DNA of 64,000 nucleotides, taken from Thermoanaerobaculia bacterium (GTDB lineage Bacteria; Acidobacteriota; Thermoanaerobaculia; Multivoradales; Multivoraceae). Positions within the stretch are counted from its first letter, which is position 1, and each line of letters opens with the position of its first letter. A model generated the notes under the pieces. That model saw only the letters and a program-made list of their open reading frames with translations, was not told the origin of the DNA and ran no database searches. The stretch lies in contig JAJEBV010000015.1 in assembly GCA_022822365.1 (NCBI GenBank), forward strand, positions 157,688 through 221,687, given 5' to 3'. Position numbers and translations under genes: made by a program. Positions 57,831-64,000 of the stretch are shown here, piece after piece.

Positions 57831-59495
57831 ATGAGACGACGCTCCGGAGTGACTCGACGCGGTCTGGTCGGCCTCGGTCTCGCGATTGTCCTCGCGGGAG
57901 GCGCCGCGGGCGCGGCTGCCTACCGGCAGGGCACGACCCAACTCGCGCAGCAGCAGCCCGCCATCGGTCCGACCCAGACGATCGACTGGCAGTCGGGCGC
58001 CGACCCCATGGGCCGACCCGCCGCGGAGAGGCCGCCCAACATCGTCGTCATCCTCGCCGACGACCTGGGCTGGAACGACCTGAGCTGGCTCGGCGGCGGA
58101 GTCGCTGGCGGCACGGTGCCGACCCCGAACATCGACTCGCTGGCCCGCGATGGCGTCCACTTCGCCAACGGCTACTCGGCCAACGGCACCTGCGCTCCGT
58201 CGCGGGCCGCCCTGATGACGGGCCGCTACGGCACCCGCTTCGGTTTCGAGTTCACGCCGACGCCGGACGGATTCGCCACGATGGTGCCCCGGCTCTCGAA
58301 CCGGGAAGGCCGGCTCCGGCAGACGAGCGCCAACGAGGAAGCGTCTTCGGTTCCGTTCGCGGACAAGGGGATGCCGCCCTCCGAGATCACGCTCGCCGAG
58401 CTGCTCAAGCCGGCCGGCTACCACACCGTGCACATCGGCAAGTGGCACCTCGGCGGGGCCGACGGCATGCGAGCCCACGAGCAGGGCTTCGACGAGAGCC
58501 TGCTCATGAGGAGCGGCCTGTACCTGCCCGAGGACGACCCGAACGTCGTCAACTCGAAGCAGGAGTTCGACGGCATCGACCGCTTCCTGTGGCGCTTCTC
58601 GCGCTTCGAGGCTTCGTTCAACGACAGCCCAGCCTTCGAACCCGGCGGGTACCTGACCGACTACTACACCGACCAGGCGGTTCAGGTGATCGAGGCGAAC
58701 AAGGACCGGCCCTTCCTTCTCTACCTGGCGCACTGGGCGGTGCATACGCCGCTCCAGGCGCTGCGCGCCGACTACGAGGCGCTGTACCACATCGAGGAGC
58801 ATCGCCTGCGGGTCTACGCCGCGATGGTCCGCTCGCTCGACCGCAGCGTCGGCCGGGTGCTCGAGGCGCTGCGCGAGAACGGCCTCGAAGAGAACACGCT
58901 CGTCTTCTTCACCTCCGACAACGGGGCGCCGGCCTACATCGGCCTGCCGCGCGTCAACGAGCCGTTCCGGGGCTGGAAGATCAGCTTCTTCGAGGGAGGC
59001 ATCCACGTGCCCTACCTCCTGAAGTGGCCGGCCCGTCTCAGCGGAGGTCAGGTCTACGAAGCTCCCGTGCACGGCTTCGACATCTTCTCGACCGCGGCGG
59101 CCGCGGCGGGCGTCGACCTGCCCGGCGACCGGAAGATGGACGGAGTCGACCTGGTGCCGCACGTCCTGGGCAAGGCCGAGGGCCCGCCGCACGACCGTCT
59201 CTTCTGGCGCACCGGCGGCTATCAGGTCGTCCTCGCCGACGGCTGGAAACTCCAGATCAGCGATCCGCCCGGGAGAGCATGGCTCTTCAACATGGAGAAG
59301 GATCCCACCGAGCAGCACAACCTCGCCGACACCGAGCCGGAGCGGGTCGCGGCCCTGAAGAAGCTCCTCGCCGAGCACAACAAAGAGCAGGCGACGCCGA
59401 TCTGGCCGTGGGCCACCCGAAGCCCGATCAACATCGACAAGACGCTGCTCGATCCGGACGCGCCGGACGACGAGTACATCTACTGGTACAACTGA
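57831..59495 (+). CDS. Sulfatase with Tat-like leader
   Basis: TRRGL, ADDLGW, CAPSRAALMTG, GKWHLG, SDNG. Start moved to ATG 57831. Confidence 0.92.
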   Translation: MRRRSGVTRRGLVGLGLAIVLAGGAAGAAAYRQGTTQLAQQQPAIGPTQTIDWQSGADPMGRPAAERPPNIVVILADDLGWNDLSWLGGGVAGGTVPTPNIDSLARDGVHFANGYSANGTCAPSRAALMTGRYGTRFGFEFTPTPDGFATMVPRLSNREGRLRQTSANEEASSVPFADKGMPPSEITLAELLKPAGYHTVHIGKWHLGGADGMRAHEQGFDESLLMRSGLYLPEDDPNVVNSKQEFDGIDRFLWRFSRFEASFNDSPAFEPGGYLTDYYTDQAVQVIEANKDRPFLLYLAHWAVHTPLQALRADYEALYHIEEHRLRVYAAMVRSLDRSVGRVLEALRENGLEENTLVFFTSDNGAPAYIGLPRVNEPFRGWKISFFEGGIHVPYLLKWPARLSGGQVYEAPVHGFDIFSTAAAAAGVDLPGDRKMDGVDLVPHVLGKAEGPPHDRLFWRTGGYQVVLADGWKLQISDPPGRAWLFNMEKDPTEQHNLADTEPERVAALKKLLAEHNKEQATPIWPWATRSPINIDKTLLDPDAPDDEYIYWYN

Positions 59496-59555
59496 GCGGG
59501 GCTGAGAGCGCCCCTACCCTTGAGCGGGCAGGTTCTCCGTTAGGGCTTCGGTGGG

Positions 59556-60587
59556 CTAATCGTCGCCGTCACCAGCCTTCAGCACGTGGACGAGGAAGTC
59601 GACCGCCTGCTGGTTGTAGATGGACGGAGTCGCCGTCGGGAGCTTGCCACTCGCCTTGTACTCGTCCGCCTGCTTCTTGTTCCGGAAGTTGTAGGCAGAG
59701 TAGTCCCGGTTGCTCTTGAGATCGTTTTCCCGGATAGCAGCCCAGATCTGGTTCTGCTTCGCTCCTGACGCCTCCTGCACGGCCTGAGCGAGCTCCATCG
59801 CCGAGAGAGGATACTCACGGATGAGGTTCTCTCGGACCCGCTTCACGATCTCGACCTTGTCGATCGGGCGCACGTCGCCGACGAGCTTGAGTGTCGGTGC
59901 ACCGAAGCGTTCCTCAAAATCTCCCTCTTTGATGAAACGCAGCTTGCTCGCCAACTGGTCCTCAACTACGAGGACCTGGGCATCATGCTTCCGTATCAAA
60001 GCCCGCTCGGTATCGAGCACGGCCGCGTTACCTGGACCCGCGGCTCCGATCTTCTGGACCAAGTCGAGCCACTCCTGGTTGTTCCGCTCGATCCGCCGAT
60101 CGATGATCCTCTCGAGTTCCCCGTACTGAACTCGCTGCGTTCGGCCGCCGTAGCGATAGTAGATCTCGCCGTTCTTGATCTCCGGCCCCTTACCTGCGTC
60201 CTTCTTCGCAACCACGGGCTTCTGTCCCGCAGGGCTCACCCGGAAGACACCGAACACCCTCCCTTCTATCTCGAAGCTGGCCTGTTCCCAGTCAACCGAG
60301 GGGGAGAAGTAGTCCAGCAGGTACCCGCTGATCCTCTCCGGATCGATCTTCTCGAACTGGTCTCGCGCGGAGTCCGACAACCCGGCTGGGATTCTTGGCG
60401 AGTCCGTAACGCCAAACACGAGATAGCCGCCGCGGTTGTTGGCAAAGCCCGCGAAGTCACGAAAGTACTCGGCGAGGCCAGCAAGATTGAACTGCTCCTT
60501 GAACTCCAGCTCTTGGCTTTCTCGGTGAAAGAGCCGGCCGTCGGGCTTCACTCGGAGCACTTCACGGATGTGGTCAGGGTCGATCAA
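59556..60587 (-). CDS. Schlafen/AlbA_2 domain protein with an uncharacterised C-terminal region
   Basis: RESQELEFKE, AGFANNRGGYLVFGVTD, YYRYGG. Confidence 0.85.
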   Translation of the reverse strand: MIDPDHIREVLRVKPDGRLFHRESQELEFKEQFNLAGLAEYFRDFAGFANNRGGYLVFGVTDSPRIPAGLSDSARDQFEKIDPERISGYLLDYFSPSVDWEQASFEIEGRVFGVFRVSPAGQKPVVAKKDAGKGPEIKNGEIYYRYGGRTQRVQYGELERIIDRRIERNNQEWLDLVQKIGAAGPGNAAVLDTERALIRKHDAQVLVVEDQLASKLRFIKEGDFEERFGAPTLKLVGDVRPIDKVEIVKRVRENLIREYPLSAMELAQAVQEASGAKQNQIWAAIRENDLKSNRDYSAYNFRNKKQADEYKASGKLPTATPSIYNQQAVDFLVHVLKAGDGDD

Positions 60588-60661
60588 GGACTAGCGAGAG
60601 GTCGAGGAGTTGTTGAAGTGAATCACGCGGCGAACCCTCTTGGGTGCTCAACGTGAACCGT

Positions 60662-61618
60662 TCACCGTGGACCGCCCCCGATCTTCCGCATTCCCATCAG
60701 TTCAACCGGCGTTCCAACGAGGTCGAAATCACTCGGAGGCTCCTGGGCGTACTGCTTCCACCGATGTCTGTACTGCTGTTCCGACAGCAGGGTGATGTCG
60801 TCGGTTGCACCGGCATCGCCGGTGTCGAGGCCAGCTCCGAACTGAATGCCGCAGAGTTCGGTCAGCACATACCGGTTGTGCATTTGGTCGCGGCCGTTCT
60901 TACGCTCGAGCCGCCGGACAACGACCCTTAGGCCCTCCGGGACGCGTCGGGGGAGCTTCTCCTTGCATGCGTCACGAAAGTACTCGTGGGTGCCCCGATT
61001 ACGGGAAAAGTCGGTGAGGATGGTGAGTTGCTCTGGTGGAAGACCCGGTCTGCTGCGCGACATGCGCTCGCAGAAGCTCTCGAGCACTTCCAGGTTCTCG
61101 GATCGCTTCGGTCGGAAATAGGGGTCCACGAGGACAATGCGCTTGCTCAGTCGGAGTGTCGAAGCGATGGCGTCAGCCATTGCTTCCGCCCGCCTGTCGA
61201 CGACGACGCCCCGCGTCACCTGCCAAAGCGGGTCGTCGTCGATGTCGTCGTGGAGCAGAACGGCCGCGTGCCCTCCCGGATTCGAGCCAGCGACGATCGC
61301 GCGAAAGGGACAGCGTTCGTGTTCTCGTAGCGCGCTGGCTAGCCAATCGACGTTCGTGCCCGGCTTCCGCTCGGCGTCCGACCGATCGATCATCCGGCGC
61401 TTGAGCTTGCGAAGGAGCAGCTTCAACTGAGTCCTACGTCGCGTGCTCCCTGCGTACTCAGATTCGTTGAAGGCGTCCAGTACGTCGTTGCGCCATTGGG
61501 CCGGCCAGCGGGACACGACCCGTCCACCGTCCATCGAGAACTGGCTCCTGTAGTAGCGAGCCTGGTCTTCGGTCCATGTGCCAACCAGGCGGGGCTCCAA
61601 CGCAAACTCCCGGATCAT
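60662..61618 (-). CDS. Hypothetical protein with a PLD-like C-terminal domain (nuclease candidate)
   Basis: IVLVDPYF and HNRYVLT...GAGLD resemble DPY / H(D/N)R / GLD motifs of divergent PLD-fold domains; 2 nt from the ATPase stop. Confidence 0.7.
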   Translation of the reverse strand: MIREFALEPRLVGTWTEDQARYYRSQFSMDGGRVVSRWPAQWRNDVLDAFNESEYAGSTRRRTQLKLLLRKLKRRMIDRSDAERKPGTNVDWLASALREHERCPFRAIVAGSNPGGHAAVLLHDDIDDDPLWQVTRGVVVDRRAEAMADAIASTLRLSKRIVLVDPYFRPKRSENLEVLESFCERMSRSRPGLPPEQLTILTDFSRNRGTHEYFRDACKEKLPRRVPEGLRVVVRRLERKNGRDQMHNRYVLTELCGIQFGAGLDTGDAGATDDITLLSEQQYRHRWKQYAQEPPSDFDLVGTPVELMGMRKIGGGPR

Positions 61619-61620
61619 CC

Positions 61621-63420
61621 TCAGAACAGTTCCTCTTCGCGCTCGTCAAAGAACCCATCCGGCCAAGGGTGTTCGAAGTCGCCGTCCGGCGTGGTGGGCA
61701 GGTGGACGATCTCGGCCCCGTCAGGGCCCGGCTGGATGTACAAAACGGCGACATCCTCCGGGCAAACCGCCGGCTTGCCGTCCAGTTCGCCGTCTGTCGT
61801 CTCCCGGATGCGACGCAGGATGCGGAGAATCAGATGCTCGCTATGCGTCTCGATAAGGAATCGGTTGCCGGACTCGCCTAGTGCCGACTCAAGAAACACG
61901 TCCCCAAGTTCCGCCTGAAGGGCCGGATGCAGGTGGATTTCGGGCTGCTCGATGGCGATCAGTTTGGCAGAAGATGCGTACGCCGACACCAGCACTGGAA
62001 GCACCTGACTCACGCCGAATCCCACGTCGCGGTGGCTGACAGGAGTGGTGGAGCGCTTGGCTATCAGCACCAAGTCTTGATGGGCCTCGCCGCGCGACAC
62101 GACTTCCGCAACGATCTCACGGACCCATTCGTCCGCGACGACGTCGGCGTCGACAATGGCGTCCACGACTTCTCCGACAGCCAGCAACGTCTCGTCGAGA
62201 GCCCCGCTCTCGACGTCTGGCCCCAAGTCCGCGTGCTGGCGGATCAGATCCAGCACCGAAGCAAGCTCGGCCGACAGCGGGCCGTCGCGCTCCGTTTGTT
62301 CGAGCACAGATAGCGCGAGTTCGTAGAGCTTGGGACCGAGCCTCTTCGCCAAGGGAGCGTCAAGGACGTCGGCGGGGAGCAGATCTCGAAGCCGGAGTTC
62401 GTAAGGCGTCTTGAGATCTCCCAGCCATCGGTTCACTCGATCCCTGATGTCGCTCCGACTTCGGACGACGTCCCACGCCCAGCCGCCTCCGGCAATCCAG
62501 TTCGGGTCGTGGTGTTGGGGGGACATCAGACTCCGGGGTGGATACGACCGGAGGGGCCCCAGGTAGAGCAGCCTGCGGATCTCCTCTTCCAGCACCTCGG
62601 AGAGGCCGCCCAGCAGCTCGCGCAACACATCCGGCAGCAAGTGCCGCGCTGCCTGGGCCAGGTTCTCCTGCCTGTAGCCGCGGCCGATCGGCCGGAAGGT
62701 GCTCTCGGTTGCAACCTGCTCGGTACGCAGAAACATGCCGCCACTCCGTCTAACGGCGATCTGCGGCACGAGTTGATCCACGACTTCGGCGAAAGTGGCC
62801 AGATCCTCATCCTGGAGGTCTTGAGCGGTGGTTGAGAACTCCAAGACCCCTCGAAACGCCTCGCGGAAGACCGGGTGTGAATGGTCGGCGCGGTCCAACT
62901 GGAGGCCCGCGCCCCGACGGACGCTCAGAGCGAGCAGCTCCCGACCGTCGGCACCAACCGCGAAACGCTGGGCTCCGACCTGGCCGTCCCGGTAGGCGCC
63001 TTCCATGCCGACGCCAACCTCAACCTCCACCCTTTGCGCCGAGCCCAGAATCTCCGCCAATCTCCCTGAGAGCTTGGCCGGATCCAGCGCGAAAGTCAGG
63101 GTCACCTCCTCGTCCACCCGCCGACGATGCACGTACTGCCCGAAACCTCCCAAGTCGATGGAGTCTCCTCCTAGGCGTGTCCGGTGGACGTCCAAGTCGC
63201 CGGTCTCGACCGCGTGGTGGGCGAGAGCCAAGGCATGAAGGACGCTCGACTTGCCGGCGCTGTTGGCGCCGAAGAGGAGCGTCAGGGGCCGCAGCGGCAC
63301 GCGCTGCGATTGCCCGAACGCCTTGAAGTTGGCGACGCGAAGGGAGTTGAAGGCGCTCAAGATTCCGTACCTGAGGTCGCCCACGGGGGCCGGAAGTCGC
63401 GACTCCATGCCAGGAGGCAA
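61621..63420 (-). CDS. ABC/SMC-type AAA_21 ATPase with C-terminal DUF3696
   Basis: NFKAF, GANSAGKS (Walker A), DVGFGVSQVLP, IEQPEIHLHP, IETHSEH, WPDGFFDE. Start uncertain. Confidence 0.9.
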   Translation of the reverse strand: MPPGMESRLPAPVGDLRYGILSAFNSLRVANFKAFGQSQRVPLRPLTLLFGANSAGKSSVLHALALAHHAVETGDLDVHRTRLGGDSIDLGGFGQYVHRRRVDEEVTLTFALDPAKLSGRLAEILGSAQRVEVEVGVGMEGAYRDGQVGAQRFAVGADGRELLALSVRRGAGLQLDRADHSHPVFREAFRGVLEFSTTAQDLQDEDLATFAEVVDQLVPQIAVRRSGGMFLRTEQVATESTFRPIGRGYRQENLAQAARHLLPDVLRELLGGLSEVLEEEIRRLLYLGPLRSYPPRSLMSPQHHDPNWIAGGGWAWDVVRSRSDIRDRVNRWLGDLKTPYELRLRDLLPADVLDAPLAKRLGPKLYELALSVLEQTERDGPLSAELASVLDLIRQHADLGPDVESGALDETLLAVGEVVDAIVDADVVADEWVREIVAEVVSRGEAHQDLVLIAKRSTTPVSHRDVGFGVSQVLPVLVSAYASSAKLIAIEQPEIHLHPALQAELGDVFLESALGESGNRFLIETHSEHLILRILRRIRETTDGELDGKPAVCPEDVAVLYIQPGPDGAEIVHLPTTPDGDFEHPWPDGFFDEREEELF

Positions 63421-63441
63421 CGAGCAACCAGTGAACGGTGG

Positions 63442-64000
63442 TCACGACTCATCGAGACCCCCATCGCCGACCCGTTCGTGGGCAGCCAGCAAGTACTGGA
63501 TGTAGGTCCGGATGAGGTCGCAGAAGAGTCGAGCCTCGTGCTCCTCAATGTCCGCAGGGTCGGCGATGTCCGTTCCGTGGCGAATGCCGCCACCTGTTGG
63601 CGACGAGAGGTAACCGTAAAGTCCCATGGCCCATCCGAGAACCTGCTCGAGGGCGCCCCCCTTGTGGATCCTGCGAAGGTCATGCACGATCTGGCTGAAG
63701 TACTTGCCTTCGACGGAACCGGAGGACGTGGCCATTCCCTTGAAGGCCGTCGCTACGGTCTCCATCAGCCAGAGAACCTCCTGAACGGCCTGCCGGTAAC
63801 TCCCGTCGTTCAAGAGCCTCTCTGAGTTCTGGAGGGAGCGTTGGATCAGCGCGTTCGTTCTCTCGCTGGCCGTTGGGGCCGAGACGGCGACGGGCTCGAC
63901 ACCAACCGTCGCTCGGATGATCTTGGGCGGATCAACTTGGAATCCCGTCCCGTGCTGACGCAGCACGCGATTGACATCCGGCACACTGGCCACTGGGGCA
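63442..64000 (-). CDS. AbiJ-like / HEPN-type C-terminal domain protein (5' end off the window)
   Basis: The frame stays open to the window edge; LYGYLSSPTGGGIRHG...EARLF...YIQYL resembles AbiJ C-terminal domains. Confidence 0.6.
   Translation of the reverse strand, partial: APVASVPDVNRVLRQHGTGFQVDPPKIIRATVGVEPVAVSAPTASERTNALIQRSLQNSERLLNDGSYRQAVQEVLWLMETVATAFKGMATSSGSVEGKYFSQIVHDLRRIHKGGALEQVLGWAMGLYGYLSSPTGGGIRHGTDIADPADIEEHEARLFCDLIRTYIQYLLAAHERVGDGGLDES

Follow-up and report, generated by a model that had tools for sequence, protein, structure and literature searches.

A translationally coupled ATPase and PLD-fold partner that look like a widespread anti-phage module in the tail of a sigma-54-controlled type I restriction operon

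We analysed a window of 64,000 nucleotides from a Thermoanaerobaculia bacterium (assembly GCA_022822365.1, contig JAJEBV010000015.1, positions 157,688 to 221,687), with a focus on two adjacent minus-strand genes near its end. The first encodes an NsnB-like ATP-binding cassette (ABC) ATPase (61621..63420; 599 aa from a TTG codon; assigned from its open reading frame (ORF), Pfam and PADLOC), and the second a putative effector partner of 318 aa (60662..61618; ORF), in which a PIN-like N-terminal domain is followed by a C-terminal domain of the MIT_C type with the phospholipase D (PLD) fold. The pair looks like a widespread anti-phage module and here occupies the end of a type I restriction operon under sigma-54 control. 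On balance, we consider it probable that both genes form a conserved, translationally coupled defence-type cassette, in which an NsnB-type ATPase and a PIN-like/single-motif PLD effector correspond to the B-C half of the Menshen system without NsnA.

The preliminary description of this DNA had placed only 2 nt between the ATPase stop codon and the ATG of the partner, and this was borne out: at the junction (61616..61623, minus strand) the TGA (61621-61623) is followed by a GG spacer (61619-61620) and by the ATG (61616-61618), and a GAGGA run is found 13-17 nt upstream of this ATG, within the 3' end of the ATPase gene. The public gene calls are shorter, with 595 aa for the ATPase (from an ATG at 63408) and 290 aa for the partner, which in that call begins at M29. 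Residues 1-28 of the partner are kept family-wide, with invariant positions that include M1, E4, A6 and P9, so that the 318-aa start is the correct one; since this conserved N-terminus places the true start 28 codons upstream of M29, the 2-nt reading of the junction also holds. The 290-aa call masks the coupling and cuts off the first strand of the PIN-like domain.

A word-index search with the partner recovered only 13 relatives. An exhaustive profile search with a hidden Markov model retrieved 2,928 representatives at 50% identity (E<=0.001), 1,091 of them at E<=1e-30 and almost all of about 300 aa. Species-representative genomes were then scanned with a 12-sequence partner alignment, which gave 80 loci from Acidobacteriota (Thermoanaerobaculia, Vicinamibacterales and Ca. 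Multivorans), Latescibacterota, Binatia, delta- and beta-proteobacteria, Planctomycetota and others. In 80 of 81 full-length loci the stop codon of a homologous ATPase lies between -11 and +7 nt from the partner start, most often at +2 (27 loci), -1 (27), -4 (12) or +3 (8), and the lone exception is a contig of 1.2 kb. Because this junction is kept in 80 of 81 loci, we conclude that the two-gene core is real and obligate and that the coupling is not due to chance. The core stays constant while the flanking genes differ, and the linkage to ATPases with a DUF3696 tail, on which the proposal of a two-gene core depended, is kept in essentially every locus. Some copies of the pair reside on plasmids; most are chromosomal, inside defence islands or restriction-modification (R-M) operons. 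Homologs from cultured organisms are present in Methylocella tundrae plasmid 3 (NZ_LR536452.1, locus L090) and in Deinococcus sp. AJ005 p96k (L091). In the former, the gene order is hsdR-hsdM-hsdS, an "AAA family ATPase" (WP_134493232), a "hypothetical protein" (WP_134493230), a SIR2 family protein and a DUF87 protein.

The ATPase matched the Pfam families AAA_15 (6e-20) and AAA_21 (2.2e-17), and DUF3696 (PF12476) with 23.2 bits against a cutoff of 22, which is marginal but above the threshold. Among the PADLOC models, the best matches were NsnB (1.3e-46), PDC-M55A (5e-40) and HEC-03B (2.4e-33), while AriA (9e-21), GajA, Old and PtuA matched the generic ATPase head only. Motif conservation was assessed in 80 homologs (coordinates on the minus strand). 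The Walker A motif GANSAGKS (residues 51-58, 63247..63270) belongs to an FGxNSxGKS stretch (50-58) kept in more than 85% of them, and YxGPxR is conserved at residues 286-291. Conserved as well are DxGxGxSQ at the ABC signature-like motif DVGFGVSQ (residues 465-472, 62005..62028), EQPExHxHP (491-499) within the Walker B and D-loop region LIAIEQPEIHLHP (residues 487-499, 61924..61962), and ETHSEHLxLRxxRR (524-537), which starts with the H-loop ETHSEH (residues 524-529, 61834..61851). Judged by these motifs, Walker A and B, signature and H-loop are all intact. The DUF3696 C-terminal tail occupies residues 554-599 (61624..61761), with PF12476 aligned over 554-598 and a conserved WPxGFFxER at 586-594. 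Ahead of the signature motif, the ATPase carries the acidic helical insert announced in the preliminary description (residues ~345-450, 62071..62388), with 24 D/E against 8 K/R; it is the most variable region of the protein, with an alignment occupancy of 0.3-0.5 and a length of 6-277 aa among the homologs. Such variability fits a specificity element, without proving one, and the idea that the insert serves as a sensor arm is speculation.

As regards the partner, no family was matched in Pfam, NCBIfam or PADLOC, including the PADLOC models for NsnC and HEC-03, in line with its first description as a protein with no obvious family. A phmmer search and two profile searches of the Protein Data Bank (PDB) sequences gave chance-level matches only, and a weak match to DUF6725 (E 0.068) was dismissed. 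Residues 136-310 (60689..61213, minus strand) form the C-terminal domain, and the top 22 Foldseek matches in the PDB were all PLD-fold proteins (probability 1.0, best E 2.5e-5 for a Streptomyces PLD), among them FAM83 (4URJ, template modelling (TM) score on the target 0.50), SauUSI, TrmBL2 and the C-domain of MITD1 (2YMB_C; E 1.3e-3, probability 0.97, TM score on the target 0.36). The match to MITD1 has no counterpart in a Pfam MIT_C (PF16565) match. The PLD-like fold proposed earlier for the C-terminal half was therefore supported by Foldseek.

The two motifs on which that proposal was founded, VDPYF (residues 164-168) and HNRYVLTELCGIQFGAGLD (247-265), are found as quoted, and the D...H(N/D)R signature of the MIT_C type is present and conserved. 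Conservation was counted in 63 relatives, which are about 30-40% identical to the partner in the window. In the DPYF motif (residues 165-168, 61115..61126, minus strand) D165, P166 and F168 are each kept in 62 of 63. The H-N-R motif (247-249, 60872..60880), counterpart of the HxK of PLD and of the HDR of MIT_C, has H247 in 62 and R249 in all 63 sequences, with N (54/63) or D (6/63) at position 248, and the GLD motif (263-265, 60824..60832) has G263 in 59, L264 in 56 and D265 in 56. In the AlphaFold2 model of the full-length partner, built with a 12-sequence alignment, D165 comes directly after strand 160-164 and H247-N248-R249 comes before strand 249-253. The motif reads H-N-R-Y-V-L-T...G-L-D, without lysine, and departs from the canonical HxK(x)4D(x)6GSxN. 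With the MIT_C domain of MITD1 (2YMB) and with PLD nucleases such as Nuc/NucT, BfiI, SauUSI and Zucchini, the partner thus shares the PLD fold and one motif per chain, and its H-D/N-R signature resembles that of MIT_C; it differs from the PLD nucleases in having arginine for the catalytic lysine, no GSxN element and no PLDc match. Single-motif PLD enzymes form their active site by dimerisation, as in Nuc and BfiI. Since each partner chain has one motif, its PLD domain would likewise have to pair.

The N-terminal domain (residues 1-112, 61283..61618, minus strand) was also modelled alone, using residues 1-118 and 28 sequences, with a pLDDT score (predicted local distance difference test) of 89 and a predicted TM score of 0.81. 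Its top Foldseek matches were the PIN protein PAE2754 (1V8O/1V8P, TM 0.57-0.59, probability up to 0.84), followed by VapC PINs. An obvious D-E-D-D quartet is missing from this domain, in which only E4 and E99 are acidic and at least 90% conserved. The PIN-like domain is probably an adaptor that docks onto the ATPase.

The preliminary description had compared the pair with Septu or PARIS. The closest known system is instead Menshen, namely its NsnB-NsnC components with the effector PB-PLD1. Menshen consists of NsnA (ParB-DUF262 plus ParBDB), NsnB (ABC ATPase plus DUF3696) and an NsnC effector (Li et al., NAR 2025, PMC12065111). PB-PLD1 resembles MIT_C and has D/E following beta2 and HDR preceding beta5; other Menshen effectors are nucleases, and AlphaFold3 models predict an NsnB4-NsnC2 complex in which the DUF3696 tails clamp the inPIN domain (PMC12065111). 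Both systems have an ABC ATPase with a DUF3696 tail, NsnB being the best PADLOC model for the ATPase described here; a downstream effector with a PIN-like N-domain, for which 1V8O is also the best PDB match reported in the case of NsnC inPIN; judging by the description of PB-PLD1, probably an MIT_C-like PLD domain in which beta2 is followed by an acidic residue and beta5 is preceded by H-(D/N)-R; and frequent adjacency to type I R-M. In architecture, this combination of an NsnB-like ATPase carrying a DUF3696 tail with a PIN-like/PLD partner makes the pair the B-C half of Menshen. On the other hand, the ATPase exceeds the NsnB model by about 250 aa and is matched by it at the ends only (the N-terminal head and residues 428-598), the partner motif is mostly HNR rather than HDR, the partner matches no PADLOC NsnC model, and the operon is headed by an RtcR-like sigma-54 activator.

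Other known systems are more distant. HEC-03 (Hma-embedded candidate 03), composed of an ABC ATPase and a VapC-like PIN protein, protects E. coli and requires both genes (Payne et al., bioRxiv 10.1101/2024.01.29.577857). It is likewise a two-gene system of an ABC ATPase and a PIN-fold partner embedded in other defence systems, and the HEC-03B model matches the ATPase, but its PIN protein has no PLD domain, whereas the partner described here carries a PLD-fold domain as the likely effector. PARIS (AriA-AriB) and Septu (PtuA-PtuB), in which a trigger makes an ABC ATPase oligomer release or activate the nuclease that it holds, share with the pair the AAA_15/AAA_21 class of ATPase and, in the model proposed below, this mode of action; they differ in their effectors (TOPRIM/DUF4435 in AriB, HNH in PtuB) and in the lack of a DUF3696 tail, and the likeness is limited to the generic ATPase head. 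Membership of PARIS was rejected, given that there is no AriB TOPRIM/DUF4435 partner and that the AriA matches cover generic AAA_15/21 regions only, and so was membership of Septu, given that no HNH protein is present and that the NCBIfam PtuA model scored 17 bits against a cutoff of 500.

The preliminary description had treated the pair as a two-gene core. The core held, but it had gone unseen that the pair belongs to the tail of a longer operon, all of whose genes are on the minus strand and which is cut by the end of the window. We read the full operon from longer contigs carrying identical proteins (L086-L089). It comprises genes for an RtcR-like activator (503 aa), HsdR (913 aa), HsdM, HsdS, a 283-aa protein, the ATPase, the partner and a Schlafen/AlbA_2 protein, after which comes a convergent sulfatase gene. 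The activator matched PADLOC RtcR_PspF2 (CARF-AAA-HTH, 2e-198) and Pfam Sigma54_activat (2.9e-68), HTH_8 and the RtcR N-domain (9.8e-5). Together with the promoter, it is located at L088:1878-3405, on the same strand and about 6.6 kb upstream of the ATPase, beyond the window. A perfect sigma-54 -24/-12 element, TGGCACGCCGCTTGCT (TGGCAC-N5-TTGCT), is predicted at L088:3390, 49 nt before hsdR, and begins 1 nt after the activator stop codon. The same arrangement recurs: shortly downstream of 20 of 24 activator genes there is a sigma-54 match of at least 10 of 11 positions, as compared to a background of 3e-5 per nt, and 14 of these 20 matches begin 1-4 nt after the activator stop codon. All 24 perfect sigma-54 matches in 2.3 Mb are on the operon strand. 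The sequence TGGCACCGGGGCTGCA, considered as a sigma-54 promoter at several loci, lies inside the hsdR coding sequence and was not counted. Within 59300-64000, no sigma-54 site, sigma-70-like promoter or terminator better than chance was found, which is consistent with one long transcript.

We also compared the surroundings of the pair in about 82 related loci, mostly with a 7-kb flank that usually ends before any activator upstream of hsdR could be visible. About 30 of them have the order hsdR-hsdM-hsdS-ATPase-partner with overlapping or abutting genes, and the activator is visible in both hsdRMS loci for which more DNA is available (L001 and L086). In about 20 others, the activator is followed directly by ATPase and partner, without R-M. 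Seven loci (L017, L024, L030, L032, L033, L051 and L076) contain tandem modules under one activator, for instance at L033:1667-7942, in the order activator, ATPase, a divergent HDR-type paralog of the partner (FHDRYLISN), a second sigma-54-like site, ATPase and HNR partner. In L001:214-11209, the pair is found between a complete type I R-M system and Thoeris (ThsB TIR plus ThsA SIR2-STALD); in this metagenomic locus an RtcR-like activator precedes and YjiT/YjiV-like genes come after. The defence genes found next to the pair across the loci encode NACHT/STAND, OLD-TOPRIM, KAP, UvrD-PD-(D/E)xK, ThiF-JAB, Thoeris and SIR2 proteins.

Previous work noted RtcR-like activators linked to R-M (Makarova 2014, PMC4012209) and described RtcR-led superoperons with type I R-M for CoCoNuTs (Bell et al. 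2024, PMC11090510). With these superoperons, the present loci share a CARF-AAA+-HTH sigma-54 activator that, at the 5' end, heads a co-directional operon of defence genes including type I R-M, and with PrrC in its type I R-M locus, a second-line effector embedded behind the hsd genes; they differ in that the terminal module is an ATPase-PLD pair rather than CoCoNuT/McrBC or the PrrC anticodon nuclease. In the RtcR and CoCoNuT literature (PMC4012209, PMC11090510), we found no earlier mention of a sigma-54 promoter abutting the activator stop codon. While the elements are known individually, their combination and the large unannotated partner family appear undescribed in the literature surveyed.

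These observations can be accommodated in the following model. An oligomer of the ATPase would hold the effector by way of a contact of its DUF3696 tail with the PIN-like domain, which would keep the single-motif PLD domains apart or inactive. The ATPase would sense a phage-derived trigger, probably through its variable inserts, and binding or hydrolysis of ATP would then release or activate the effector. The PLD domains could thereupon pair into a two-histidine active site, cut nucleic acid and halt the infection, possibly at the cost of the cell. The RtcR-like activator would raise expression in response to a signal of infection or damage, and where the cassette is placed behind hsdRMS it would probably act as a second line after restriction.

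Several points weigh against this interpretation. We infer the nuclease activity and the gating by the ATPase, and the interface between ATPase and effector is assumed, being taken over from the Menshen predictions. The full-length model of the partner reached only a moderate pLDDT of 75.8, with residues 113-135 as a disordered linker, and the PIN-like assignment, though consistent among its matches, had a weak Foldseek E of 0.17. Among the 63 diverse relatives of the partner nothing was found consistently in Pfam, and none matched PLDc, PLDc_2 or MIT_C (E<=1). The partner has HxR in place of the catalytic HxK of PLD enzymes, and we know of no catalysis by its nearest solved relative, the C-domain of MITD1. 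This C-domain binds membranes (Hadders 2012, cited in PMC12065111). A direct link to phages is also missing, as no homolog was found among 50,697 phage records. Finally, NsnA (ParB-DUF262 plus ParBDB) was seen neither here nor in the ~82 related loci; DUF262 was not found in ten other proteins encoded upstream of the pair, where the usual gene is that for HsdS or for the activator. The published Menshen survey was seeded on NsnA (PMC12065111), so that pairs without NsnA fell beyond its scope.

The frequent position of the pair behind hsdS raises the question of whether the cassette guards type I restriction, much as PrrC or PARIS do. The intact Hsd complex or its DNA would then keep the cassette silent and phage anti-restriction proteins of the Ocr/Stp type would trigger it, with the acidic insert of the ATPase reading the state of the R-M enzyme. 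The hsdR-hsdM-hsdS-ATPase-partner loci with their abutting or overlapping genes, Methylocella included, argue for this explanation, as do the precedents of PrrC and PARIS and the charge of the insert, whose median net value is about -10 in copies that follow hsdS versus about -2 in those that follow the activator. This difference suggests that the insert and the R-M context may be connected, but it is a purely descriptive figure. Moreover, since the pair directly follows the activator in the ~20 loci without R-M and stands beside unrelated defence genes in others, R-M is not obligatory for it, and we regard the guard explanation as unlikely, though with some real chance of being right. A more far-reaching view, which we hold to be quite unlikely, is that one inducible, layered immune operon is made up of activator, sigma-54 promoter and ATPase-PLD cassette, whether hsdRMS is present or not. 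Restriction would act first, and the NsnA-less module would be a self-contained sensor-effector, in which the acidic insert reads anti-restriction proteins or the Hsd state and licenses the dimerisation of an MIT_C-type PLD nuclease.

The fold of the effector leaves room for two further explanations of the same cassette. In one of them, the PLD-fold domain would cleave or bind membrane phospholipids, and the cell would be killed or arrested by membrane damage, as by CBASS patatin or PLD-type toxins. The strongest Foldseek matches are indeed true phospholipases D from Streptomyces, and MITD1, prototype of the H-D-R variant, is the membrane binder mentioned above. Nevertheless, the nuclease SauUSI and the DNA-binding TrmBL2 are also among the top matches, the other Menshen effectors are nucleases, the PIN-like N-domain suggests contact with nucleic acid, and the 318 aa of the partner include no membrane-targeting segment. 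We therefore consider an action on lipids very unlikely.

In the other, the PLD-like domain would be a non-catalytic sensor or adaptor that binds phosphate or nucleic acid, and killing or restriction would be left to type I R-M, the Schlafen-like protein or the ATPase. HxR instead of HxK, the single motif per chain, the PIN-like domain without an obvious D-E-D-D quartet and the catalytic status of MITD1 are compatible with a dead domain. In about half of the loci, however, the operon lacks R-M or any other nuclease, as in those with activator, ATPase and partner alone, so that the pair would there be left with no effector; in addition, D165, H247 and R249 are near-invariant across sequences of ~30% identity, which is typical of an active site. 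In our view, a dead PLD domain has very little chance of being the right explanation. As for a toxin-antitoxin (TA)-like module that stabilises the island or plasmid without a role in phage defence, it could appeal to the Pfam name of AAA_21 ("putative AbiEii toxin, Type IV TA system") and to the copies on plasmids, but most copies are chromosomal, in defence islands or R-M operons, and control by a sigma-54 activator together with a large ABC ATPase is unlike classical TA pairs, for which reasons we find it highly improbable.

The remaining genes of the island differ between loci. The gene of the 283-aa protein (full length at L086:7242-8093) lies between hsdS, whose end it overlaps, and the ATPase, and its 3' part is present in the window as a 183-aa ORF (63442..64000, minus strand). 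Pfam gave no hit for its product, and the matches to PADLOC PDC-S32 (2.7e-6) and to Abi_C (0.18) are weak. The latter led us to consider an ABC-3C system (ABC ATPase, middle component and effector), which was rejected, the upstream 283-aa gene not being conserved: it is missing from the close relative L007 and from the other loci, and is thus outside the conserved core. At the other end, 74 nt past the partner, a 343-aa protein with a Schlafen/AlbA_2 domain (SLFN_AlbA_2, 2.3e-17) is encoded by the last gene of the island (59556..60587, minus strand); found otherwise only in the Ca. Multivorans locus L007, it is a local addition and could be either another defence gene or a regulator. GC content falls from ~68-70% to ~61-64% from ~59500 on, exactly where the island starts beside the sulfatase gene, which suggests horizontal acquisition. 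HsdR (L086:1565-4306) is long and shows a weak Peptidase_S24 (LexA-like) match at its N-terminus, before HSDR_N. At the other edge of the island, a 384-aa gene without Pfam or PADLOC match (L088:491-1645, minus strand) is divergent from the activator.

Collectively, these results point to a partner family of ~2,900 clusters at 50% identity that has been overlooked by genome annotation and by defence-system finders, since Pfam, NCBIfam and PADLOC v2 all miss it and RefSeq labels its members "hypothetical protein". They also indicate that a Menshen B-C module exists and spreads without the NsnA protein used to define and survey Menshen, which widens the family and raises the question of how infection is sensed. 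Recurrently, an RtcR-like CARF activator and a sigma-54 promoter precede the defence cassette and, in many genomes, an entire type I R-M operon as well, and at such loci the transcriptional induction of restriction-type immunity is directly testable; since cultured Methylocella and Deinococcus contain homologs, experiments are practical. Catalysis by the H-(N/D)-R PLD domain, if it takes place, would shed light on what MIT_C domains do in eukaryotic MITD1 and in BrxL, and should the layered operon prove true, it would provide the first catalytic function for the MIT_C branch common to these two proteins.

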